DNA of 64,000 nt from Minisyncoccota bacterium (GTDB lineage Bacteria; Patescibacteriota; Minisyncoccia; Phycocordibacterales; GCA-2747955), in the NCBI GenBank assembly GCA_020628915.1, contig JAHDEI010000003.1, positions 1,859-65,858 of the forward strand. Reading direction: 5' to 3'. The notes below the pieces were generated by a model. That model had not been told where the DNA came from. It saw only the letters and a program-made list of their open reading frames with translations, and did no database searches. Shown piece after piece: positions 4,618 to 49,400 of this stretch (positions are counted from its first letter, which is position 1; every line of letters begins with the position of its first letter). The position numbers were made by a program, and so were the translations under genes.

Positions 4618-5610
4618 ATGAACAGATATGGAAATCAATTTGGTTCACAGCCCGAGCCGTCAATATGGGACAGTTTACTATCAAGCGCACCGCTCGTGGT
4701 GGGACTCGTTATTCTTTTGCTGTGGTTGTCTACCACTATCGTTATCACTCGCGGAATGCGAGCAAAAATCGTTGAAATACTAGGCCAGCCTGAAAAGAAG
4801 GCTCGCCTATCAGGTCTCAGTTTCAAACTGCCGTTTCCGTTTGCACGAGTTGTTGGAAATGTGAATCTTCAGCTTTGTGAAATCGGATCAGACGTGAAGG
4901 CCAAAACCAAAGACAACGCCTTCTTGACGTTGCCGGTTAAGGTTCAATACCGAGCAACGCGAACAGCGGAAGGTGCCTTATTGGCCCACTACGAACTTGA
5001 TGATCCAGAATCACAGATTGTCAATTACGTTTTGAACAATGTTTCTTCTACGGTCCCCAAAATGGATATGGAAACGCTGTTTCAGCAACGCGAACAGATC
5101 GAAACGGAAGTCCTGGGCTCTCTACAAGAGAAATTTGGAAAATCCGGGTATTCAATCGAAAATGTTTTGGTTGATGAGCCAGATCCTTCGGAGGAAGTCA
5201 AAAAGTCATTCAATGACGTAATTGCGTCAAAACGCGCAAAAGAAGCCGCTCAGAACATTGCTGATGCTGAAAAGATCAGACTTGTTGGGATAGCGAAAGC
5301 TGAAAAGGAGTCAAAAAAGCTCCAAGGTGAAGGCCTCGCAGATATGCGCAAGGCGATCGCGACTGGCATGGACGTCTCCATGGAGACGCTTATGAAGTCG
5401 GGCATCTCCAAAACAGAAGCCTTGGTGCTTCTAATGCACACGAACCACTTGGACACACTTGGTTCAGCTGCTGCAGGAGGGAACATGATCATTACAGATA
5501 TGGGTGCCGGAGCACTCGGAACGGATGATATTTTCGCCGCCACAGCTGCTGCCATGAAGGCGACACGTCAGGACGGTGGAGCATCCTCTAGCTCTGATAC
5601 AGAAACCTAA
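4618..5610 (+). CDS. SPFH/band-7 (stomatin, prohibitin, HflC/K-like) membrane protein.
   Basis: One N-terminal TM helix, then an SPFH-like domain (IVITRGMRAKIVEILGQPEKKARLSGLSFKLPFPF...) and a coiled-coil A/E/K-rich tail. Start chosen at the RBS-preceded ATG at 4618 (MNRYGNQ). The track ORF 4585.. is an upstream extension. Confidence 0.7.
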   Translation: MNRYGNQFGSQPEPSIWDSLLSSAPLVVGLVILLLWLSTTIVITRGMRAKIVEILGQPEKKARLSGLSFKLPFPFARVVGNVNLQLCEIGSDVKAKTKDNAFLTLPVKVQYRATRTAEGALLAHYELDDPESQIVNYVLNNVSSTVPKMDMETLFQQREQIETEVLGSLQEKFGKSGYSIENVLVDEPDPSEEVKKSFNDVIASKRAKEAAQNIADAEKIRLVGIAKAEKESKKLQGEGLADMRKAIATGMDVSMETLMKSGISKTEALVLLMHTNHLDTLGSAAAGGNMIITDMGAGALGTDDIFAATAAAMKATRQDGGASSSSDTET

Positions 5611-13570: not shown

Positions 13571-15460
13571 ATGATTATTCCTATTACACAGGAAGATCTT
13601 AGTGTGCATCTTGAAAAAGCACAAAAGCTTATCAGCGACACCCGGTTTAACGGAGTGACTCTGGAAGATGTACTTGGTTCTTTGACAGACAATCAACCTT
13701 TTAATTCAGTTCCTGATCAAAGACTAATCCAGTCGGTATTACGAGGAGCACAAATTGCCCTTGAGGTGGCGCGACGCTATCATGCCGAGTCAGGTCTAGA
13801 TGAATTACATACAAGACCGAAACGAACGAGCACAATAAGGCAAGAATATTCACAAAAACTCAAGACTTCATCATCGATTTCTGGATTTGTATTTTCAAGT
13901 TACATTTTGGCGACTCTAGCAGAGCATGTTGACCATACTACTGCTGGTGAGATCAAATTAGACATCAGTGATTTGCCTTCGGGGGGCCCTTTTGAGACTC
14001 TTGTTGGTCTCATGACAGTCCTTGGTCAGGCGGTAAAATCGCTCTCACACGACGATCGTAAACCAACAGAAATTGCATATGCCTATTTCCGTCAGGTGGC
14101 AGAGTTGATCAAAGACTCTCACGAGGATCTGAAATATACTCGACCATTTGTTGATCATACATTTCAGTATGAAGAATCAGATTTTACGATCAATGGTTTT
14201 ACTGTCGATACCGTGATGTTGCGACCAAAGGTTTCTTTCAGACGTTTCGACATGGACAAGATCGTCAGTAATCGTCGTGCAAAAAACCAAACGGTGCGAA
14301 CGATTGATCACATGCTTTGCTACGATTTTCAGACCGGGAAAAATCCAGTCTTGGAATTGGGCGGCTTTGCTAGTCTCAGTATCATGGAATCAGAGCCGGG
14401 TTCTGGCAAGACATTGCTAGAGCGAGCAGGCAACACCATGTTTGTAGACAAAGCATCAGCTGTAGGTGTTCCACATCAAGTGGTTGCATTTACTGCGGAA
14501 GAAATTCTGAGCTCATATCAAGCAAAGTCTGGCGAACAAATGCGGGCGAGATTTGATCTTATTAATAATGCGCAACTTTTGACCCGGGCAACGATGGACG
14601 ATGCTGATCAGTTAGTTCTGGATCGTGGTTCCAGCGAAAGTAGTGAGGCAACACAAGGGGCAGTCAGCGTAGCGCTGACTCAACTAGACGGTGTCTTTTC
14701 TCAAAGAAATGGGAACTGGACACTCACCCTTTTGACGAACTTATTGCACCGTATTGATCCAGCAATAGTGTCTCGTGCAGACAATATTGTTTCAATGCCG
14801 GGCCCTGAGACCAAAGAAGACATGATGGATTTGGCAAAAATCTTGATTGGTGACGATTTTGTTGATTCAGGCATTGCTGATCCTGAGGGGTACGAATACT
14901 TTGCTACGCAAAAAATTCAAAGCCTTTCGGGCGGCAAGGATACGTACGCCAAACCAAAACATCCAGTGATTCTCGAGGCCTTTGAGGAAGCTTTGAGGTT
15001 ATCCGGATTTGGTCCAGACGAACTCATTACATTTATTGGCAACTGGTTTGTTGCAATTAAAGAGAGGCATTCGTCATTTCAAGGCCGAAATATCCAAAAG
15101 ATATTTGGTTCTGCCAAACGTCGTACAATGGATTTTGATTTCCCATCCGATCTATTTTCTGACCGAAAGCATTTTATTGATTACGGTTATGACAAGCGTC
15201 TGGCAATGATCAAAGAGTGGCGGAAAGAAAACATGAAAGGACAAAGCTATACGGAAATTATCATTGAAGAAGCTTGTCATCATCTCGACACCATGATGAA
15301 CATTAGTGAAAATCAATTCAGTAAGGACGTCGAAGAGGCTACGTATCGTATGCGCGTTAATGAACAGGCTCAGAGAAATAGTTTTTCGGATGATGAATTG
15401 AAAGAAACGTACGAATTTCTTAAAGAAAAGTTCGAGAAAGATGAGCACGCTCCAGCGTGA
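13571..15460 (+). CDS. AAA+ family ATPase domain protein (629 aa), with unknown N- and C-terminal regions.
   Basis: Walker A ESEPGSGKT, Walker B-like DDADQLVLD, and a sensor region LTNLLHRIDPAIVSRAD that resembles the classical AAA motif TNRPD.LDPAL.RPGRFD. A GGAG ribosome-binding site is present. Confidence 0.55.
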   Translation: MIIPITQEDLSVHLEKAQKLISDTRFNGVTLEDVLGSLTDNQPFNSVPDQRLIQSVLRGAQIALEVARRYHAESGLDELHTRPKRTSTIRQEYSQKLKTSSSISGFVFSSYILATLAEHVDHTTAGEIKLDISDLPSGGPFETLVGLMTVLGQAVKSLSHDDRKPTEIAYAYFRQVAELIKDSHEDLKYTRPFVDHTFQYEESDFTINGFTVDTVMLRPKVSFRRFDMDKIVSNRRAKNQTVRTIDHMLCYDFQTGKNPVLELGGFASLSIMESEPGSGKTLLERAGNTMFVDKASAVGVPHQVVAFTAEEILSSYQAKSGEQMRARFDLINNAQLLTRATMDDADQLVLDRGSSESSEATQGAVSVALTQLDGVFSQRNGNWTLTLLTNLLHRIDPAIVSRADNIVSMPGPETKEDMMDLAKILIGDDFVDSGIADPEGYEYFATQKIQSLSGGKDTYAKPKHPVILEAFEEALRLSGFGPDELITFIGNWFVAIKERHSSFQGRNIQKIFGSAKRRTMDFDFPSDLFSDRKHFIDYGYDKRLAMIKEWRKENMKGQSYTEIIIEEACHHLDTMMNISENQFSKDVEEATYRMRVNEQAQRNSFSDDELKETYEFLKEKFEKDEHAPA

Positions 15461-15524: not shown

Positions 15525-15553
15525 TTGACTCATTAACAAATAAATGCTATTAT
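15525..15553 (+). promoter_or_regulatory. Promoter of the 9-gene operon. It carries the same spacer motif as the promoter at 13514.
   Basis: TTGACT at 15525-15530, a 17-nt spacer cATTAACAAATAAATgc, then TATTAT at 15548-15553. Confidence 0.5.
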
Positions 15554-20651: not shown

Positions 20652-21875
20652 ATGGTTTCTACAGCAATGGCCGCCGATGTGGCGGCTCAGGAAATCCAAT
20701 CGGTTCAGCCCAAGAAATTTACACTTGATGTGAATAGAATTGAGTCTGAAACAAAGCCGGTTGTGGTTGCCGATCCGGAAATGCATGAACGTGCAAACGG
20801 TTTGATTGAGTCGCTTTTGGCGATGGATCTTGATGCAGATCAAGAGGCAATCAAAACCGAAGTCTCACGTGCTGGCTCTAATTTGTTGCGAGGTGGAGGA
20901 CGCAAAAGCGAACTTCTCAGTGCAAAAATGAAAGAGCTAATGCAAGACAAAACTGGTGGCGAAAACGTTGCCAACGATTTGATTGCACTTCGAGATGAGG
21001 TTTCAAAACTTGATCCGGGCCGTGTGAATTTTTCGCCGGGCGGGATCGGTCGATTTGTCGAAAAAATGCCAATTATTGGTGGGAGAGTGAAAAAATATCT
21101 CAACCAGTATGAACGCGGTGATGTGGTTATTAACCAAATCGCTGACGGCCTGCGGGCTGGCCAAGCCAGACTCGAAAATGACAATGTGATCTTGCGTGAT
21201 GACCAGGCTGAATGGCGGATGGCCTCTATTGCCTTGAAAAAGGAAGCAGAGTTCCTCAAGTTAGTCAGCGATCAGTTGCAGTCTCGTATTGCAACTATGG
21301 AAAATCAAGAACATAAAGGTTTTCTGCAACGTGAAGTGGTATTCCCACTGATGAAGACTCACAGTCGGCTTTTAACTGCAGCAGCAGTTGATCAGCAGGG
21401 TGTTTTGTCCGCAGAAGTCCTGGTTCGTGCAAACACGGCACTAATCGAAGGCATCGAAGATGCGCTCTACGTGACCATCCGTGCACTACGCATCGGTGTC
21501 ACTCTTGCCGTCGCTCTTGCTCACCAGAAAAAAGTTCTAGGTGGGCTTGAAAAGACGCAAGACATGACCAACAAAATGCTGGAACGTAACGCAGACATGC
21601 TTGGTACTCAAGCAGCTGACGTTTATAAACGTGCTAGTGGTGTTGGTGTCAATGTTGATACATTGCAAGCAGCAATGGACAAATCCATTGCGGCCATCAA
21701 GTCTTTGGATGATTTCCGTATGGAAGCCATTCGAACAATGTCAGGCCAGATCAAGCAACTTGAGCAGGTTACTGACAATGGTGAAAAAGCAATTCGTGAG
21801 ATGGAAGCAGGCAACAAGATTGCCGATGACGTCTCTACAGCAGGCTTCTTTGCATATGCGCAGAAGGCTGCCTAA
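20652..21875 (+). CDS. TelA/KlaA (toxic anion resistance) family protein.
   Basis: Length of 407 aa and motif series (LRDEVSKLDPGRVNF...GRVKKYLNQYERGDVVINQIADGLRAGQARLENDNVILRDDQAEWRMASIALKKEAEFLKLVSDQL) that follow the TelA family pattern LDP...KY...Y...Q..I..I...L......L..DN..L......LW. Confidence 0.6.
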   Translation: MVSTAMAADVAAQEIQSVQPKKFTLDVNRIESETKPVVVADPEMHERANGLIESLLAMDLDADQEAIKTEVSRAGSNLLRGGGRKSELLSAKMKELMQDKTGGENVANDLIALRDEVSKLDPGRVNFSPGGIGRFVEKMPIIGGRVKKYLNQYERGDVVINQIADGLRAGQARLENDNVILRDDQAEWRMASIALKKEAEFLKLVSDQLQSRIATMENQEHKGFLQREVVFPLMKTHSRLLTAAAVDQQGVLSAEVLVRANTALIEGIEDALYVTIRALRIGVTLAVALAHQKKVLGGLEKTQDMTNKMLERNADMLGTQAADVYKRASGVGVNVDTLQAAMDKSIAAIKSLDDFRMEAIRTMSGQIKQLEQVTDNGEKAIREMEAGNKIADDVSTAGFFAYAQKAA

Positions 21876-21941: not shown

Positions 21942-23066
21942 ATGAAACGTAATTTTCTGTTGACTACAACAATGGCGATCACTCTAGCACTTGGTGCTTG
22001 TGGTGATTCTTCGAAACCGGCAACTCAAACTCCGGCCCCTGCTGCGACATCGTCAAATGTTGTGATGGGTAGTGGAGATACTTGTCGTTTCGCTTGGTCG
22101 CATTACACCGGCTGGGAACCAGTCTACATGATGCAATCAGAAGGGATCGCAGAACGAATGGGCGCGAAATATAATGTAAATATTACGATTTCGCCGCCAA
22201 TGGACTATGTCGAATCGTTGACGCAGTTCGCTGCGGGAACATTTGATTTTGTGACTTCAACCGGCATGGACGCATTGACGATTCCTGCCGCCGGAGGCAC
22301 AGTCACTGACTATATCGTTGCAGGTGATTTTTCAAATGGCAACGACGCAATCGTGGTAATCGATCCAGCCGGCTCGATCCAATCTGTTGCTGACCTGAAA
22401 GGCAAGGAGGTTATCCTTGTTGAAGGATCAGTGTCAGACTTCATGCTTTCGAAAGCTTTGGATGATTATGGCTTATCTGGGTCAGATGTTGTTCGCAAGA
22501 ACACAAGTGATGCAGATATCGGTTCTATTCTGGCTACTGCTTCTGACGGAACAGTTGCTGTGACATGGAACCCGATCGTACTACAAACACTCGAAGCTCG
22601 GAAAAATGATGGCGCCCGAAGTGTCTTTGATTCATCACAGACACCTGGCCTTATCATGGATGGTATTCTGGCAAACGATGGTGCCACTGAAGCCTGTCGT
22701 TATGCAGTTACTGCAGCCTGGTATGAAGCCGTCTCTCTGATTCCGCAGTCGCGCTCAGCAAATGCTGATCCGGCGGCATATGAAAGAATGGCCCGCTTTG
22801 CCTCTGGTAATGCGGCAAACTCAGTTGAGCTCTTTGATGCCCAGCTGGGGACGACCCGGATGTTTTACACACCAATGGACGGTATTTCTGTAATGGAAAG
22901 CCAGCAGCTAAAAGACAACATGGAATTCATCCGTGAGTTCGCAGCTGGTTCTGGGTTGATTGACAGCGCAGACGTCGTCGGTGTTTCGTTCCCGGACGGT
23001 TCCGTTCAAGGGGGTTCAAACGTAAAATTACGTTTTACTTCCAAATATATGAACGGCGTTCGTTAA
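21942..23066 (+). CDS. ABC transporter substrate-binding lipoprotein, NitT/TauT (nitrate / sulfonate / bicarbonate, SsuA-like) family.
   Basis: Lipobox LALGAC followed by the SsuA/NMT1-like sequence GWEPVYMMQSEGIAERMG...FDFVTSTGMDAL. It is genetically linked to the permease and ATPase of the same family. Confidence 0.7.
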   Translation: MKRNFLLTTTMAITLALGACGDSSKPATQTPAPAATSSNVVMGSGDTCRFAWSHYTGWEPVYMMQSEGIAERMGAKYNVNITISPPMDYVESLTQFAAGTFDFVTSTGMDALTIPAAGGTVTDYIVAGDFSNGNDAIVVIDPAGSIQSVADLKGKEVILVEGSVSDFMLSKALDDYGLSGSDVVRKNTSDADIGSILATASDGTVAVTWNPIVLQTLEARKNDGARSVFDSSQTPGLIMDGILANDGATEACRYAVTAAWYEAVSLIPQSRSANADPAAYERMARFASGNAANSVELFDAQLGTTRMFYTPMDGISVMESQQLKDNMEFIREFAAGSGLIDSADVVGVSFPDGSVQGGSNVKLRFTSKYMNGVR

Positions 23067-23100
23067 TTTTTCTCCTATGAGGACTCCCTTTCTGGGGGTC

Positions 23101-23155
23101 CTCAGCGTCACAGGATGTGTGTCCTGTCTGATGAGTCCAAAAGGACGAAACGCAG
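23101..23155 (+). ncRNA. Type III hammerhead self-cleaving ribozyme (copy 1).
   Basis: Helix III 5-prime strand and GUC cleavage triplet at 23104-23109 (predicted cleavage after C23109). Helix I hairpin acagga-ugugug-uccugu (23110-23127). CUGAUGA (23128-23134). Stem II gucc-aaaa-ggac (23135-23146). GAAA (23147-23150). Helix III 3-prime strand cgcag (23151-23155). A 10-bp hairpin (gaggacuccc...gggggucctc) lies immediately upstream. Confidence 0.75.
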
Positions 23156-23197
23156 TTGTTCATTTACATACAATATACGACAATGTTTTTAATGTAT

Positions 23198-23252
23198 GTG
23201 AAACGATATTGTGTAGGGCAGATATGGTCTTCACAATATCGTTTCACATGAG
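23198..23252 (+). repeat. Perfect 17-bp inverted repeat with a 20-nt loop, downstream of the ribozyme in the 5-prime UTR of the permease gene.
   Basis: atgtgaaacgatattgtg ...(20 nt)... cacaatatcgtttcacat. Confidence 0.7.
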
Positions 23253-23292
23253 GCGATTTTAAAACTCGCCTTAACGATAGAGAGGAGTTAAT

Positions 23293-24123
23293 ATGAGAAA
23301 AAAATCTATCTTTGGTCTTTATGGCCACATTAAACAGCCGTGGAATTTCCTGTTAGGGGTAATTCCAATTGCATTTTTATTCATAGGATTTCAGGTTTTG
23401 AGCTGGAATTATCTTGCTGATAATCCTGACGGAAAACTATTCCGTGGGTGGGAAAACGTATTTGCAGCTTTGCATCGGATGGCAACAGTCAAAGATGTTA
23501 TGTCTGGTGAATATTTGTTATGGAGCGACATGTTCGTGACATTAAAGCGCCTACTCGTCGGGTTAGGGTTAGCAGTTTTCTCTGCTGCTTTGCTCGGGGT
23601 TCATATGGCGTTCTTCCCATGGATTCGGGCAATCTTTTTGCCGTTTATCCGTCTTGTTTCCAATCTGCCGGTCATCATTGTGATCTCAATTGTCTTGCTA
23701 CTAGCAGGTACAGGAGAGTTCTTTAAGGTGGCGATGGTATTTCTTGGAACTGTGTTTTTGTTGAGTCGTGACATCTTTCGATCAGCTGATGCTGTATCAA
23801 GACAACGGGTTACCAAAACATTGACACTTGGTGCATCGCCGCTTGGTGTTATTTACCGAGTGATGCTGCCTAGGTTGGCACCAGATATCATTGCCGCAAT
23901 CAGACTTGCTTTGCCAGGCGCATGGATTTATGCATTGGTGAGCGAGATGACGATTTCTACTGATGGTCTTGGCTATCGAGTCGCAGTCATGCGTCGGCAC
24001 ATGGAAATGGACGTCATTATTGGGTACGTATTGGTGGTTTCACTACTGGCGATACTTATCGATTTTGTCTTAAAGACAATTTCTGAGAAACGTTATCCAT
24101 GGCACAACCCGGAGGGTAAATAA
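23293..24123 (+). CDS. ABC transporter permease, NitT/TauT (SsuC-like) family.
   Basis: Six TM helices. EAA-like loop (GASPLGVIYRVMLPRLAPDIIAAIRLAL). AGAGGAG ribosome-binding site. Confidence 0.75.
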   Translation: MRKKSIFGLYGHIKQPWNFLLGVIPIAFLFIGFQVLSWNYLADNPDGKLFRGWENVFAALHRMATVKDVMSGEYLLWSDMFVTLKRLLVGLGLAVFSAALLGVHMAFFPWIRAIFLPFIRLVSNLPVIIVISIVLLLAGTGEFFKVAMVFLGTVFLLSRDIFRSADAVSRQRVTKTLTLGASPLGVIYRVMLPRLAPDIIAAIRLALPGAWIYALVSEMTISTDGLGYRVAVMRRHMEMDVIIGYVLVVSLLAILIDFVLKTISEKRYPWHNPEGK

Positions 24124-24125
24124 CA

Positions 24126-25079
24126 ATGACCACCACAGATAAACTTGAAAAATTGATCGATGATTTAGATCAAAAAACAGTTGGTTCACCTAGAGAATAT
24201 GTTTTACATCTATTAGATGTACACAAATCTTATGACGATGGTCGTGTCCAGGTTTTACATGATCTTGATCTCAAAATTACCGAAGGCGAATTTGTAACTC
24301 TTGTTGGTCCATCTGGATGCGGCAAGTCAACACTTTTGCGAGCGGTTTTGGGTGAAGAAGATGTTACCGAAGGCACTGCGACAATTCGTGGTTCTGCAAT
24401 TAAGACGCCGGATGTGACACGAGGAATTGTCTACCAAGACCATTCTTTGTTCCCGCATTTAACAGCATGGCAAAATGTCATGATGGGTCCGAAATTGCAG
24501 CAGTCGTGGTGGAAATTCAAAAAAGTTTCTGAGGCAGACAAGCAGTTGGCACGAGAATACCTCGAGCGAGCAGGTATGTCTGAACACCTCGACAAGAAAC
24601 CATATGAGCTTTCCGGCGGTCAAAAACAACGTATCGCGATCATTCAAGCATTGATGGCTAAACCAGAAATTTTATTGATGGACGAACCATTTTCTGCGCT
24701 AGATGAGACAACTCGTGAAGATATGCAGCTGCTGCTGCTTGAGCTATATGAACAGACTGGCATGACCATTTTGTTTATCACTCATGATCTGACTGAGGCG
24801 TTATATCTTGGAACCAGAAACATTGCTTTGTCCCAATACTATGTTGACGGACGAGGTGATGAAACAAAAGGGGCCAGGATAGTTTCTGATATTCGGCTGC
24901 GTGAAATTGGTACAGCGATTTCTCCAAGTGAGAAGTCGTCACCGAAATTACATGCATTGAAAGATAAAATCCGTGCTGAGGCATTTGATCCTGACCATAT
25001 TAGACATGCAAAGGACTTTACGTTGACTCATCCGGATTCATTTCAAACACTAACCGAGCGCGAAGCCGCTGTCGTATAG
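24126..25079 (+). CDS. ABC transporter ATP-binding protein, NitT/TauT (SsuB-like) family.
   Basis: Walker A GPSGCGKST, signature LSGGQKQRIAI, Walker B LLMDEPFSALD. It overlaps the permease stop by the sequence ATAACAATGA. Confidence 0.85.
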   Translation: MTTTDKLEKLIDDLDQKTVGSPREYVLHLLDVHKSYDDGRVQVLHDLDLKITEGEFVTLVGPSGCGKSTLLRAVLGEEDVTEGTATIRGSAIKTPDVTRGIVYQDHSLFPHLTAWQNVMMGPKLQQSWWKFKKVSEADKQLAREYLERAGMSEHLDKKPYELSGGQKQRIAIIQALMAKPEILLMDEPFSALDETTREDMQLLLLELYEQTGMTILFITHDLTEALYLGTRNIALSQYYVDGRGDETKGARIVSDIRLREIGTAISPSEKSSPKLHALKDKIRAEAFDPDHIRHAKDFTLTHPDSFQTLTEREAAVV

Positions 25080-33829: not shown

Positions 33830-33866
33830 GATAGTCTTCCAAAAGGGCTATTTTATTATATAAGTT

Positions 33867-33896
33867 TGACGATACGTCAATAAAATTATATTATGC
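33867..33896 (+). promoter_or_regulatory. Sigma-70-like promoter for the 565-aa orphan gene.
   Basis: TTGACG, a 17-nt spacer, then TATTAT. A CAAGGAGAATAGA ribosome-binding site precedes the ATG at 33928. Confidence 0.45.
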
Positions 33897-35733: not shown

Positions 35734-37710
35734 ATGAAACTTAATCCCAAGCAGCAAGAGGCAGCATCAATCCTATCCGGCCCCGTTTTGGTATTGGCTG
35801 GTGCCGGCGCAGGAAAAACAAAGACACTAACCGAGCGAATTATTCGCTTGATTGAGTCAGGGGTCATGCCACAACATATTTTGGCGATTACATTTACTAA
35901 TAAGGCGGCTATGGAAATGAAAGATCGGGTACACACTGCAATCAAAAACAATCCCAAACTACAGTTTCCAGTATTTGAAGAAGGCTTTGTCCCATTTGTT
36001 TCTACCTTTCATGCACTCGGGGTAACAATTCTTCGCGAGCAATACAAAGTTTTGGGTGTTTCAAAATATTTTTCAATTTATGACAGACAAGACTCACGTC
36101 GTGCCATCAAAGAGGCGGTGAAGAAAAACGATCTTGATCCAAAGGCGTGGGACACAAAAAAAATTCTTTCATTTATTTCAAAAAACAAAGGGAACGGAAA
36201 GAGGCTGGCAGATATAAACATGGAGGAAGATTCGTCATATCACCGGGATACCATGATTGCCATTTGGCGATCCTACGAAGCGATCAAGAGAGAGGATAAT
36301 GCGTATGATTTTGATGACCTCTTGCTTGAGACGGCGTATTTACTCAGAACAAACGAGCAAGTCAGAGAGCATTATCTGCGTCGGTGGAGCCATATCCACA
36401 TTGATGAATACCAGGATACAAACAAGGTTCAATATCAGATTGTTCGTGCTCTCACCAACAAGGAAACTAACGACATTTTTGCAGTAGGAGACCCAGACCA
36501 GCTGATTTATGGATGGCGAGGGGCAAAGATTTCAAATATTATGCGATTTGAAAAAGACTTTCCGGGAACCGTATCCGTAATCCTCGAGCAAAATTATCGT
36601 TCTACTAAATACATTATTGATGCATCAAACGCGGTTATTGAGAAAAATGAAAATAGGTTTCCTAAAAAGTTGTTTACTGAAAATGATCAAGGAGATTCGG
36701 TTGGAGTATATGCGGCATACGATGCAGCAGAAGAGGCAACATGGATTACTGAGAATATTCAAAATAAAATTAACGAGGGCGTAGATCCGGGTGAGATTGC
36801 GGTTTTGTATCGAGCAAATTTCCAGTCTCGAATTTTGGAAGAAGCATGTCTTAAAAATGATATTCCTTATCAAGTGTTAGGAACAAAATTTTATGATCGA
36901 GCAGAGGTAAAAGATGTTCTCGCCTATGTCCAGGCTGCATTGAGTCCAGATTCATTGATTCACGTAAAGCGTGTGATTAACATGCCAAAGAGGTCGCTTG
37001 GTAAGACTTCAGTTTTGAAAATTTTTGCTGGCAAAGAAGATGAATTAACACCACGAGCAAAAAAATCTCTTGAGCAGTTTAGAGAAATTCTCTCAAACAT
37101 TAAACAATTTATTGATAATGGCTATCCTCCTAGTGAGGTCATCTCACATGTAATTGCAGTTTCTGGGATGGAAAAAATGTTCCGCGACTCTAAAAAGGAG
37201 GAAGACCTCGAGAGGATCGCAAACATGTATGAGCTTTCTGAAGTTGCATCAAAATACGATACGTTTCCTCCAGAAGATGGCCTTATGAGATTTTTAGAGG
37301 AGGTTGCTCTTGCTTCAGACCAGGATTCAAAAGATGATTCCAAGCCAATGGTCAAACTGATGACCATTCATGCTGCCAAAGGACTTGAGTTTGATACTGT
37401 TTTTGTTTCAGGATGTGAAGAATCTTTATTCACGCCGCAACCTGGTTTGGATCAAAAAGCTAGCGATGAAAAAGCCGAAGAAGAAAGGAGGCTTTTCTAC
37501 GTAGCAATGACACGAGCAAAAAACAAATTATATTTGTCGTGGGCGTCAGTCCGTATGGTATATGGATCTCAAGAAGTCAATTTAATTTCATCATTTATTT
37601 TAGATATTCCAGAAGAATGTTTAAGTGAAGAAAACGTTGGATTCTCATTTACCAATAATCGACTGATGGGTGACGATGACGAAGAGGCGATCATCTATCT
37701 TGATTTTTAA
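35734..37710 (+). CDS. UvrD/PcrA/Rep-family ATP-dependent DNA helicase.
   Basis: Motif I LVLAGAGAGKTKTLTERI and the ILAITFTNKAAMEM box. DEYQDTN (Walker B / motif II), VGDPDQLIYGWRGA, YRS, and C-terminal TIHAAKGLEFDTVFVSG plus LFYVAMTRAK. Confidence 0.85.
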   Translation: MKLNPKQQEAASILSGPVLVLAGAGAGKTKTLTERIIRLIESGVMPQHILAITFTNKAAMEMKDRVHTAIKNNPKLQFPVFEEGFVPFVSTFHALGVTILREQYKVLGVSKYFSIYDRQDSRRAIKEAVKKNDLDPKAWDTKKILSFISKNKGNGKRLADINMEEDSSYHRDTMIAIWRSYEAIKREDNAYDFDDLLLETAYLLRTNEQVREHYLRRWSHIHIDEYQDTNKVQYQIVRALTNKETNDIFAVGDPDQLIYGWRGAKISNIMRFEKDFPGTVSVILEQNYRSTKYIIDASNAVIEKNENRFPKKLFTENDQGDSVGVYAAYDAAEEATWITENIQNKINEGVDPGEIAVLYRANFQSRILEEACLKNDIPYQVLGTKFYDRAEVKDVLAYVQAALSPDSLIHVKRVINMPKRSLGKTSVLKIFAGKEDELTPRAKKSLEQFREILSNIKQFIDNGYPPSEVISHVIAVSGMEKMFRDSKKEEDLERIANMYELSEVASKYDTFPPEDGLMRFLEEVALASDQDSKDDSKPMVKLMTIHAAKGLEFDTVFVSGCEESLFTPQPGLDQKASDEKAEEERRLFYVAMTRAKNKLYLSWASVRMVYGSQEVNLISSFILDIPEECLSEENVGFSFTNNRLMGDDDEEAIIYLDF

Positions 37711-47082: not shown

Positions 47083-47164
47083 ACAAATCCTTAGACTTGA
47101 CAAGTAGTCAAATTTAGTATAGAATACTCCCATAAGTTCTTTGAGAAATTTATGGTTAAGAGTA

Positions 47165-47216
47165 CGAAATGACTGTTTTGCATAGCATGATGCTAGACAA
47201 AACAGTCATTTCGTAT
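47165..47216. repeat. Near-perfect 52-nt palindrome in the leader of the lipoprotein gene.
   Basis: cgaaatgactgttttg-catagcat-g-atgctag-acaaaacagtcatttcg. The outer 16-bp arms match perfectly. A second inverted repeat, cacacgga...tccgtgtg, follows at 47221-47252. Confidence 0.7.
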
Positions 47217-47285
47217 AAATCACACGGATATGGCGTAAACGTGTCCGTGTGACACATCAATCTTGAAAAAACAGAGGAGTTCATC

Positions 47286-47699
47286 ATGAACATCAAGAAA
47301 ACTATTATGATATTGGCAGCTGTTGGCATGACAGTTTCAACAACAGCATGCAAAACGATGGAGGGAGGCACCTATCAGGTTGCTGCTCGCCAAGCTAAGG
47401 ACGGTGCAACGGTTGCCCAGCAAGGTAGTCAAACTGTTCAGGAAGCCGACAAGGCAGAATCATCTTCTCGGCAGAATTCTCGGCAGCGATGGTTGAAAGA
47501 TGGCAAGGCACCAGCTACCGCTTCTCGCGAAGCAGCATATCTGGATATGGCCGAAGACAACTTTGACCATGCTCGTGACGCTGGGTTTGCCGCAATCATT
47601 GCGGGTAAGGCTCTGGGAATGGATGCCTTGCGCGATCTGTGCGACAAGAAAGACGATCAAATGGCATGTGCAGCCTTGGCAACTATGCAGCCAGAATAA
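47286..47699 (+). CDS. Lipoprotein, hypothetical (137 aa). Locally higher GC.
   Basis: AGAGGAG ribosome-binding site. Signal peptide with lipobox VSTTAC. A terminator-like hairpin (ggaccc-agtcaaat-gggtcc) follows at 47714-47733. Confidence 0.55.
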   Translation: MNIKKTIMILAAVGMTVSTTACKTMEGGTYQVAARQAKDGATVAQQGSQTVQEADKAESSSRQNSRQRWLKDGKAPATASREAAYLDMAEDNFDHARDAGFAAIIAGKALGMDALRDLCDKKDDQMACAALATMQPE

Positions 47700-47735
47700 C
47701 TCTTAACCAGTTTCGGACCCAGTCAAATGGGTCCG

Positions 47736-47788
47736 TTCTGTCTGAAGATGTGTATCTTCACTGATGAGTCCAAAAGGACGAAACAGAA
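47736..47788 (+). ncRNA. Type III hammerhead self-cleaving ribozyme (copy 2).
   Basis: Helix III 5-prime strand uucug (47736-47740), then U47741 and the cleavage nucleotide C47742 (GUC). Perfect 7-bp helix I ugaagau-gugu-aucuuca (47743-47760). CUGAUGA (47761-47767). Stem II gucc-aaaa-ggac (47768-47779). GAAA (47780-47783). Helix III 3-prime strand cagaa (47784-47788), fully complementary. Confidence 0.8.
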
Positions 47789-47941
47789 TGTTCTTTGAAA
47801 TCATAAACAAGTATAGAGTTTATGAATCGGCCCCCATGTACATTGATGTGTATATAGGAGCCGATTCAATGTAGTCCGATCGGCATCGCCCAATCGGGCT
47901 ACTCAAAACTTATATTTAGCTTAGAAAAGAAGGAGACGCAC

Positions 47942-49135
47942 ATGCGTATTTCAAAATTTATCACAGCATCAGTTCTTGCAACGACACTGTCAGCACAAGC
48001 CTTTGCTAACACGGTTTGGTGTGATCCAACACCAAACGCTGTTCCTGATTTGGCCGGGAAGGTACTTCCTGGCGAAGTCGAGCTTGAAATCACAGGTGTT
48101 GATGCATGGGTTACCATGTCACCAACAACGGCTGCGAATCAACGTCAAAACGGTGGTTGCACACTTCGCGCAGGCGAACGTGTTGCAGCGATCGACGCGC
48201 CAAACATGCCTGGTTTCTGGAAAGTTACCCGGGTCTTAAAGTGCGGAAACACTGTTGTTACTGACCTGTATATTCCGAAACCTCAGGTTGAGCAAACATT
48301 CACATGTGCGCCTAACCAAACCCGGATTATCGTTGATGGCCGAAAAGAGTGTGCTCGTGTTGAAGACGTTGTGGCTACGCCGCAATATACTCAACAAACG
48401 TATGCTCCAGCTCCAGCTGCTCCAGTTTACGCTCCAGCTCCAGCTCCAGTCGCACAATCGTGTCAAGGCGGTCTGTTCTCAGACTGTTACGATTCGACTG
48501 GAGACCATGAAGCTATGAGAATGGAAGTCGGAACAACCGGAACCCTTGATGGTACTATCATCTCAGGATATCGTTACCAATTCTTGGGCCAAGTTGTTCA
48601 GACAATTGGTACGGTTGCTTCTGCGGTTGTTGTCGCTAGGAAACTCGGCGGAAATAATCACAGCCACCAACCTCGTCATCACGATCGACCCGTTGATGGT
48701 GAAGACGGCCCAACATTGGGCGGTACCTCAAACGGAACGATGCCTGGTAACAACGGCGGGACACTTGGTGGTACTTCAGGTACAACCGGTAGTCAAGTTG
48801 GCGGCGGCTCTCAAATCATTGGTGGTGGTCAAACATTGCCTCCGAGCGTAGGAACAGGAACCGAGCAACGATTCGTTCTCGGCCCTAATGGCGAATATAT
48901 CTACAATAACGCCGGTCAGATTAATGCTGGCCAAGTGATTGATCCCAATCACGGTAATATTGTCGGTACAATTGCTACTTATCCAAACGGCGTGAGCTAT
49001 GGCAACAACACCGTGTCTGGTAGCTTCACAAGTGGGTCTTATACCCACACTGTGACTGCACCAGCTGGCGCGAGCTACGGAACAGGGACCGCTAGTGGAG
49101 GCTCAACAGGGCCAACACTTGGTGGATCCGATTAA
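47942..49135 (+). CDS. Secreted Gly/Thr-rich hypothetical protein (397 aa). Higher GC.
   Basis: AGAAGGAG ribosome-binding site. Signal peptide MRISKFITASVLATTLSAQAFA. Cys-containing N-terminal domain, PAPAAP linker, and a C-terminal G/T/S-rich low-complexity region. Confidence 0.55.
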   Translation: MRISKFITASVLATTLSAQAFANTVWCDPTPNAVPDLAGKVLPGEVELEITGVDAWVTMSPTTAANQRQNGGCTLRAGERVAAIDAPNMPGFWKVTRVLKCGNTVVTDLYIPKPQVEQTFTCAPNQTRIIVDGRKECARVEDVVATPQYTQQTYAPAPAAPVYAPAPAPVAQSCQGGLFSDCYDSTGDHEAMRMEVGTTGTLDGTIISGYRYQFLGQVVQTIGTVASAVVVARKLGGNNHSHQPRHHDRPVDGEDGPTLGGTSNGTMPGNNGGTLGGTSGTTGSQVGGGSQIIGGGQTLPPSVGTGTEQRFVLGPNGEYIYNNAGQINAGQVIDPNHGNIVGTIATYPNGVSYGNNTVSGSFTSGSYTHTVTAPAGASYGTGTASGGSTGPTLGGSD

Positions 49136-49194: not shown

Positions 49195-49220
49195 GACACC
49201 CATGAGGGTGGCTTTTTTAT
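49195..49220 (+). terminator. Rho-independent terminator.
   Basis: acaccc-atga-gggtg-gcttttttat. A second imperfect GC-rich hairpin containing TGACGTCA lies at 49144-49170. Confidence 0.65.
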
Positions 49221-49400
49221 TTCAAAACTTTTTGAAAGCCTTTATTCCTAGCCATTTTTTGCCTTTTTTCTGTGGAAAACTTTGTTTATAACTAAATTAG
49301 GAATGTTCCTTGACTTTATGTCAAATTCAGTATAAAATAGTCAAGATTTTTGTGTAGATTTTGCCGCATACAGGCTTGTTTGACAAAACCGTAAAGGTAT

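Follow-up and report, generated by a model that had tools for sequence, protein, structure and literature searches.

A predicted type III hammerhead ribozyme with an adjoining hairpin between two co-oriented genes on a Patescibacteria chromosome

The 64,000-nucleotide (nt) stretch analysed here (the window; positions 1,859 to 65,858 of contig JAHDEI010000003.1, assembly GCA_020628915.1, from a Minisyncoccota bacterium) carries at 47735-47789 a predicted type III hammerhead ribozyme, which lies between genes for a putative lipoprotein and a secreted protein. We refer to it as copy 2; a second hammerhead, copy 1, lies at 23102-23156, and all features given below for the two loci are on the + strand. 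The locus of copy 2 begins with a sigma-70-type consensus promoter (47097-47125; TTGACA, 17 nt, TAGAAT; 11/12 matches in our own scan) that has a palindromic -35 region, TTGACAagtaGTCAA. The upstream gene (47286-47699), defined from its open reading frame and translation, encodes a 137-residue putative lipoprotein whose signal peptide ends ...STTAC. It is followed by an 8-bp hairpin (47714-47735), by the ribozyme and by a structured leader (47790-47941) in which direct reading and folding place, from 5′ to 3′, the leader motif GUUCUUUGAAAU at 47790-47801, hairpins at 47823-47868 (a long one) and 47871-47902, and a strong ribosome-binding site, AAGGAG, at 47930-47935. The downstream gene (47942-49135), defined in the same way as the upstream one, encodes a 397-residue secreted protein that has a signal peptide and is rich in Gly over its C-terminal half. 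The two-gene unit is closed by a canonical intrinsic terminator, CACCCatgaGGGTG followed by the U tract GCTTTTTTAT (49197-49210), past which new promoters occur at 49310 and 49400. A scan of the + strand with the sigma-70 consensus found no promoter-like site in 47100-48000, and hence none between the two genes. The simplest reading of this layout is a two-gene operon with the ribozyme in its intercistronic spacer, and the promoter at 47097, the only one found upstream, is likely the start of the transcription unit. A preliminary description of the locus, made from the sequence alone, had staked its proposal on the flanking genes being co-oriented and transcribed through the spacer; the genes do lie on the same strand, with a promoter upstream and a terminator downstream, an order that suggests co-transcription. 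Neither flanking protein matched a Pfam or NCBIfam family, and the 397-residue protein is an orphan among the 5.8 billion clusters searched.

Copy 2 matches Hammerhead_3 (RF00008) over 47735-47789 at 51.6 bits, against a gathering score of 48.5 (E = 1.8e-8), and at curated thresholds Rfam reported nothing else in the window besides two transfer RNAs (tRNAs). An Rfam scan at E up to 0.1 and our own covariance model (R1), run with filters off, revealed no further hammerheads or other ribozyme classes in the window; R1 scored copy 2 at 77.5 bits, a value to be read in light of the fact that copy 2 belonged to its training set. Read directly, helix III comprises 6 bp (47736-47741 with 47783-47788, UUCUGU / ACAGAA), helix I a perfect 7 bp closed by a GUGU loop (47743-47749 with 47754-47760, UGAAGAU / AUCUUCA) and helix II 4 bp closed by an AAAA loop (47768-47771 with 47776-47779), with the CUGAUGA core at 47761-47767 and GAA at 47780-47782. 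C17, the cleavage site, corresponds to 47742, placing the predicted cut between 47742 and 47743. An additional pair, G47735-U47789, is possible; G47735 is also the final base of the upstream hairpin. The core contains C3 U4 G5 A6 N7 G8 A9 and G12 A13 A14 together with the A15.1-U16.1 (A47783-U47741) and G10.1-C11.1 (G47768-C47779) pairs, the GUC triplet at 47740-47742 follows the N-U-H rule (position 17 is not G), and helices I and II are loop-closed while helix III is open, which is the type III order. These features confirm, at the level of sequence, that 47735-47789 is a genuine type III hammerhead. The preliminary description had called 47712-47790 a hammerhead without naming its class; the sequence is as written there, both its 7-bp helix I and its 6-bp helix III stand, and the new 5′-end that it predicted at 47743 agrees with our placement of C17. 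It had also proposed a structured leader between the ribozyme and the next gene, and the hairpins within 47790-47941 bear this out. Apart from 47761, the 24-nt core CTGATGAGTCCAAAAGGACGAAAC has a single further exact occurrence in the window, at 23128 and likewise on the + strand; none of 100 shuffles contained it. The 246-nt intergenic region as a whole is strongly structured (z-score -7.3).

The hairpin on the 5′ side of copy 2 (CGGACCCA/gucaaa/UGGGUCCG; 6 of its 8 pairs are G-C) starts 15 nt past the TAA stop codon (47697-47699) of the lipoprotein gene and ends exactly at the start of helix III. Such hairpins are a regular, family-wide part of the module and are not confined to the two copies in the window. 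Among 69 type III members from a broad viral scan, the 40 nt 5′ of helix III had a mean folding energy of -12.8 kcal/mol versus -5.4 kcal/mol in random windows of the same contigs (p = 3e-25), and in 45 of the 53 strong cases the hairpin ended 0-1 nt from helix III. An independent set of 67 members gave -11.8 versus -6.4 kcal/mol for the same 40 nt (p = 1e-14); in 32/50 the hairpin stood 0-1 nt from helix III. Most hairpins of the family lack a following U tract, and the true terminators in the window have clear ones. We also observed a near-identical hairpin, GGUGUCUUCAAAGACACC, common to many viral contigs of the type III family. In dozens of IMG/VR contigs (L017, L091, L008, L012, L044, L055 and L061, among others) a near-identical hairpin, (G)GUGUCUUCAAAGACAC(C), stands 3-8 nt 5′ of a type III hammerhead, which is followed by an A-rich leader of 20-30 nt and then a start codon; this arrangement looks like a widespread phage intercistronic cassette. 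A blastn comparison of hairpin plus ribozyme with GenBank phages returned no match.

The window comes from the chromosome of an uncultured, ultra-small Patescibacteria (candidate phyla radiation, CPR) bacterium and not from a phage. Among its products are a CCA-adding enzyme, PcrA/UvrD, KsgA, ClpP, a UMP-kinase-type amino-acid kinase (PyrH), a XerC/D-type recombinase, an IMPDH/GMP-reductase family protein, ribosomal protein S6 and a VirD4-like coupling protein, and the named homologues of its PcrA all come from Patescibacteria/CPR (Patescibacteria group, Pacebacteria, Campbellbacteria and Parcubacteria). A sub-threshold Rfam match to n00280 (37453-37550, + strand; 41.4 bits versus 65.2), a family described as a Clostridioides difficile small RNA within a helicase gene, falls within the sequence that codes for PcrA, whose conservation probably accounts for the match. 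The neighbourhood of copy 2 is housekeeping chromosome without phage genes, and its synteny, from PcrA to the lipoprotein/secreted-protein pair, is kept in three related contigs, L142, L138 and L140, whose PcrA proteins are 79%, 78% and 77% identical to that of the window.

The search of related genomes that the preliminary description had called for, aimed at the equivalent intergenic position, found the ribozyme in two of these relatives, L142 and L138, and not in L140. In L142 the promoter, a small lipoprotein gene, the ribozyme (14742-14796; 45.7 bits, below the gathering score) and a secreted-protein gene follow one another as in the window; in L138 the ribozyme (21126-21180) has an AUA site and was not reported by Rfam even at E up to 0.1. 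The window, L142 and L138 share one and the same 24-nt core. The stems around it differ while remaining paired: helix I reads GAAGGAU / AUCCUUC in L142 and GUAGGAU / AUCCUAC in L138, and helix III reads CUGCAU / AUGCAG and UUGUAU / AUACAG, so that among the three orthologues three helix I pairs and four of the six helix III pairs have changed on both sides. Over the same distance the flanking proteins of L142, L138 and L140 have kept their signal peptide/lipobox Cys character and show no BLAST similarity to the window proteins, and the rest of the spacer has also diverged beyond recognition. With PcrA still 77-79% identical, the lipoprotein/secreted-protein pair look like rapidly diversifying surface proteins, and copy 2 looks vertically inherited within the clade. 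The Rfam score, these compensatory changes and the family-wide covariation described below support the proposal in the preliminary description that the element is a functional module and no chance match.

A promoter of the 47097 type lies 5′ of the positional orthologue in L142, L140 and L138. This conserved type, with the palindromic -35 region cTTGACAnnnnGTCAAAtatagtaTAnAAT, was seen in the window at 47097-47125, 49310-49338 and 33866-33894 and in relatives at 14283 (L142), 20449 (L140), ~20590 (L138), 19991 and 21441 (L145) and 20941 (L146); the palindrome suggests an overlapping operator. The ribozyme is also absent from the more distant relatives L145 and L146. We had considered that a promoter there had been replaced by the ribozyme, a suggestion that we have toned down, as the genes concerned are no recognizable orthologues. 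The L140 spacer (20978-21265) contains unrelated hairpins instead of a hammerhead and keeps the downstream TTGATCTTTTACAT motif, making it a natural ribozyme-minus comparator.

Copy 1 bears out the claim that a same-orientation copy of shared architecture exists in the window. It is of type III and has a GUC site with a predicted cut between 23109 and 23110, a 24-nt core identical to that of copy 2 and an 11-bp G+C-rich hairpin (23078-23104; -20.9 kcal/mol) that adjoins helix III and begins 12 nt past the stop codon of the upstream gene. Helix III has only 4 contiguous pairs, and because of this copy 1 scores 44.1 bits in Rfam, below the gathering score; the Infernal/Rfam check proposed earlier thus places copy 2 above the curated threshold and copy 1 below it, and the assignment of copy 1 uses the exact core repeat as well. 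The flanking genes, assigned by Pfam/NCBIfam family searches, belong to an ATP-binding cassette (ABC) transporter: a NitT/TauT-type substrate-binding protein is encoded on the 5′ side (21942-23066) and a permease and an ATPase on the 3′ side (23293-25079). ABC-transporter operons normally need unequal stoichiometry, with more binding protein than membrane components. Copy 1 occupies the sixth junction in a long same-strand string of genes that starts behind a promoter-like site at 15525. The long spacers at the binding-protein/permease junction of distant homologues (47% identity; L147 and L148) contain no ribozyme. The only related contig for copy 1, L122, which has TelA-binding protein synteny, ends at the stop codon of the binding-protein gene.

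Both copies belong to a wider subclass. Public collections were scanned with a pattern in which nothing is fixed but the core, the 3′ portion of loop I and two bases of the helix I 3′ strand; it matched 15 loci in species-representative genomes, 67 in metagenome contigs and 5 in viral contigs. Of the 15 species-representative genomes, 11 bear the name Saccharibacteria, Saccharimonadia, Nanosynbacter or Patescibacteria. Pairing was scored in 67 distinct occurrences, the helix I 5′ strand being left unspecified by the pattern: helix I pairs 7/7 in 64 of them, 65 have 3 or more contiguous pairs in helix III, and the cleavage triplets (GUC 43, GUU 14, GUA 9, GUG 0) match the N-U-H rule. A gapless alignment of 59 sequences had a covariation score of 0.592, versus 0.170 for shuffles and at most 0.13 for slid registers; since this set was pre-filtered for pairing, the score illustrates the covariation and does not prove it. 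Loop I (U-GUGU-R) and loop II (NAAA) are conserved across the subclass while the stems vary. Members lie at a median of 38 nt past a same-strand stop codon and often 20-30 nt before a same-strand start codon. The preliminary description had taken the shared core and loop I of the two window copies as a possible sign of mobility; this did not hold, as the same core and loops are the consensus of the subclass in Patescibacteria genomes and many phage contigs, and their identity in the window reflects family-wide constraint and not recent mobility or duplication.

The RF00008 gathering score misses much of this subclass. Many members fall below it because their loop II is a minimal 4 nt versus ~8 nt in the consensus, and at that score Rfam reports no hammerhead in nine of the pattern-match loci (L126, L131, L135, L155, L189, L190, L136, L159 and L175), three of them named Saccharibacteria metagenome-assembled genomes and the others metagenome contigs without taxonomy. 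Two further arrangements were seen in the survey. The Saccharimonadia contigs L131, L126 and L135 have a conserved hammerhead variant (GGAAAGUC...) 5′ of a transfer-messenger RNA (tmRNA) gene and a tRNA cluster, at a distance of ~170 nt in L131 (ribozyme 4980-5034, tmRNA 5201-5557) and 1.5-1.8 kb in L126 and L135; it may serve in noncoding RNA processing or mark an integration hotspot. Six short metagenome contigs (L151, L161, L171, L172, L195 and L135) have two same-orientation copies 0.3-1.2 kb apart that flank single small genes, which resembles a prophage arrangement described earlier (PMC3088659).

The leaders behind the ribozymes have counterparts behind promoters. A leader motif, GTTCTTT(T/G)A(C/G)A(T), starts either ~11 nt past the -10 box of the conserved promoters or directly past the ribozyme, and it is followed in order by a long hairpin, a second hairpin and a ribosome-binding site. 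This cassette was seen at 47126-47285, 47790-47941 and 23157-23292 in the window, at 14312-14449 in L142 and at 20478-20632 in L140; the same order of elements stands behind the promoter at 47097 and behind copy 1. The longest inverted repeats of the window are 5′-leader hairpins of 18-26 bp (47163-47215, 23196-23249, 47823-47868 and 473-515), and the relatives have leader hairpins of the same kind (L142 14341-14390; L140 20511-20558). Several have a GAAAC...GUUUC base, for example GTGAAACGATATTGTG...CACAATATCGTTTCAC. These long hairpins may be a lineage-specific leader element or a site for a protein or a ribonuclease (RNase). Across the family, a motif G[UA]UC[UAC]UU lies 4-6 nt past GAAAC in 13/67 members versus 0.6% of control windows, a comparison for which the motif was defined after the data had been seen. 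Window-wide enrichment of the GUUCUUUGA motif was not significant (42 found versus 29.7 expected). A role of GUUCUUUGA as a -35 box was ruled out, as no -10 box lies at the right spacing, and long-range pairing between the motif and the ribosome-binding site was set aside because it occurs in copy 2 only and is inconsistent across leaders.

We think it probable that 47735-47789 is a functional type III hammerhead in a bicistronic messenger RNA (mRNA) and that its constitutive self-cleavage splits the message. This proposal builds on the identity of the ribozyme, its conservation and covariation, the adjoining hairpin and the promoter-to-terminator layout, from which we infer cleavage in vivo, co-transcription and effects on stability. 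Transcription would start at 47097, pass through the lipoprotein gene, hairpin, ribozyme, leader and secreted-protein gene, and end at the terminator at 49197. Once the polymerase has made the 3′ strand of helix III, the RNA would fold co-transcriptionally and cut itself after C47742. The upstream product would end in the stable hairpin plus 7 nt (the 5′ strand of helix III) with a 2′,3′-cyclic phosphate, an end poorly open to 3′ exonucleases; the downstream product would start at U47743 with a 5′-OH, its first base paired in helix I, and carry the remaining ribozyme and the structured leader. The type III topology means that almost the entire ribozyme would remain on the downstream product, and the upstream product would be left with only 7 nt of helix III, which would explain why that side has a hairpin partner. 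In bacterial mRNA decay, a 5′-end sealed by pairing is a poor entry site for 5′-end-dependent RNases. The two cistrons would in this way be physically uncoupled, and their stability and translation could differ. Copy 1 would likewise separate the message for the binding protein from that for the permease and ATPase.

Several observations weigh against this proposal. In L140, a close relative, the promoter and the two genes occur with no ribozyme in the spacer, which makes the ribozyme dispensable. The hairpin of copy 2 followed by UUCUGUCU passes a loose terminator filter as a borderline case, so that some transcripts may stop before the ribozyme is made. The thermodynamic fold contains the hairpin and helices I and II but lacks helix III, and it was for this reason not used as evidence; hammerhead junctions usually fold in this way. 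Promoter scoring in this lineage relied on the sigma-70 consensus alone, and the suggested consequences for stability would depend on the RNase complement of the host.

The pass of the copy 2 hairpin and UUCUGUCU through the terminator-like filter also speaks for a different role, that of an attenuating (polarity) device, in which RNase J-like 5′-to-3′ decay of the 5′-OH RNA, perhaps dislodging the polymerase, would make hairpin plus ribozyme a ribozyme-assisted terminator that reduces downstream relative to upstream expression. The glmS ribozyme provides a precedent, its 5′-OH product being degraded by RNase J1 in Bacillus subtilis, and in copy 1 the binding protein, which is expected to be more abundant, is the upstream gene. 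A downstream gene without a promoter-like site of its own nevertheless has a strong ribosome-binding site and has retained a leader that is long, structured and conserved, which fits poorly with its attenuation. Moreover, the new 5′-end of a type III ribozyme is paired in helix I, generally hindering 5′-end-dependent decay, and the U tract that is clear in true terminators of this genome is missing from most hairpins of the family. We regard attenuation as unlikely. A conditional switch, in which cleavage is modulated so that the ratio of products responds to conditions, seems to us distinctly improbable. Modulation might come from ribosomes terminating 15 nt before the hairpin, from Mg2+ or from pairing of GUUCUUU with AAAGGAC (loop II and the 3′ strand of helix II); the two are fully complementary in copy 2 and the motif's fixed offset in 13 of the 67 members, against 0.6% of control windows, is in keeping with such a switch, but the complementarity is imperfect in copy 1, L142 and L138. 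The same motif also stands behind plain promoters without a ribozyme (window 47136, L142 and L140), so its role is apparently unconnected with the ribozyme. Neither a ligand-binding nor a sensor domain is evident, and the Rfam scan of the window gave no riboswitch match. In favour of a switch, regulated cleavage has been raised as a possibility for phage hammerheads (PMC3088659).

It could also be that the ribozyme is a neutral or selfish relic, a cassette deposited by a phage or mobile element with no role in the host. The abundance of the cassette in viral (IMG/VR) contigs is in line with such an origin, as are the absence of the ribozyme from L140, L145 and L146 and from the binding-protein/permease junction of distant homologues. 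A relic would not, however, be expected to stay at the orthologous position across three lineages in which PcrA differs by 21-22% from that of the window, with the core 100% conserved and the helices carrying compensatory changes, while the flanking proteins and the remaining spacer became unrecognizable over the same divergence; the conserved chromosomal synteny and lack of phage genes argue in the same direction. We accordingly hold this to be very improbable, the least probable of the alternatives considered. Beyond the single locus, we tentatively suggest, as a possibility we would rather doubt than assert, that in Patescibacteria the hairpin plus type III hammerhead is a vertically inherited, general form of operon punctuation that replaces an internal promoter or an RNase site, self-cleavage producing the same kind of leader 5′-end as initiation at a promoter. 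In its favour, GUUCUUU(U/G)A, with the long GAAAC...GUUUC hairpin behind it, starts right after the ribozyme and also ~11 nt past the -10 boxes of neighbouring promoters. If it were true, ribozymes would be a routine means of mRNA maturation in these reduced genomes, and the subclass would be a hallmark of the phylum, in keeping with the names of 11 of the 15 species-representative genomes in which it occurs.

Splitting of a bicistronic message by constitutive self-cleavage, the reading that we favour, can be set beside systems already known. Bacterial and phage hammerheads have been catalogued by the thousands. Their purpose in bacteria was described as undefined even in a 2019 review (PMC6765202), and the literature that we searched contained no paper linking hammerheads with Patescibacteria or Saccharibacteria. 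The ribozyme class is already well known; modestly new are a chromosomal site in a CPR bacterium that is vertically conserved and not part of a prophage, the adjoining hairpin as a regular part of the module and the under-detection of the short-loop-II subclass at the Rfam threshold. The locus is also an unusually clean test case, a minimal chromosomal unit of promoter, gene, ribozyme, gene and terminator for which natural orthologues with the ribozyme (L142 and L138) and without it (L140) are available for comparison, and the second copy lies at a classic point for unequal expression in an ABC-transporter operon. In a 2011 report, prophage intergenic hammerheads cut ~2-kb polycistronic transcripts in vitro, and processing of operon mRNA was proposed for them; among its examples, three ribozymes flank ardA in Agrobacterium tumefaciens, and HHphage, from haloviruses HF1 and HF2, lies 13 nt 5′ of a start codon and has a mapped 5′-end at most 3 nt from the cleavage site (PMC3088659). 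Those hammerheads share with ours the position between co-oriented genes and the proposed cutting into gene-length mRNAs; they differ in that ours occupies a conserved, non-phage chromosomal site of Patescibacteria within a simple promoter-to-terminator two-gene unit, and in that type II is very common in the bacterial and phage set of that report, whereas copy 2 is type III. The passages searched in it make no mention of a hairpin adjoining the ribozyme (PMC3088659).

With the type III hammerheads of RF00008, copy 2 shares the CUGAUGA...GAA core, the A15.1-U16.1 pair, the GUC triplet and three helices with helix III open, and it differs in a loop II of 4 nt (AAAA) where the Rfam consensus has ~8 nt. 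Classic type III hammerheads belong to plant viroids and satellite RNAs, where they act on rolling-circle intermediates, whereas here the host molecule would be a bacterial mRNA. In phage T7 early mRNA, an intercistronic cut by RNase III leaves a stabilizing 3′ stem-loop on the upstream message. The arrangement proposed here would be a functional analogue, with separated cistrons and an upstream message ending in a stem-loop, in which the RNA cuts itself without a host enzyme and leaves a 2′,3′-cyclic phosphate and a 5′-OH, not a 3′-OH and a 5′-phosphate. Synthetic insulators of the RiboJ type place a hammerhead and then a hairpin 5′ of the ribosome-binding site, removing the upstream RNA context. 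With copy 2, too, the downstream mRNA would start with the ribozyme body and have a hairpin between this and its ribosome-binding site, but copy 2 is natural, has a much longer leader (~150 nt) and has an extra hairpin on its 5′ side that would stay with the upstream product.

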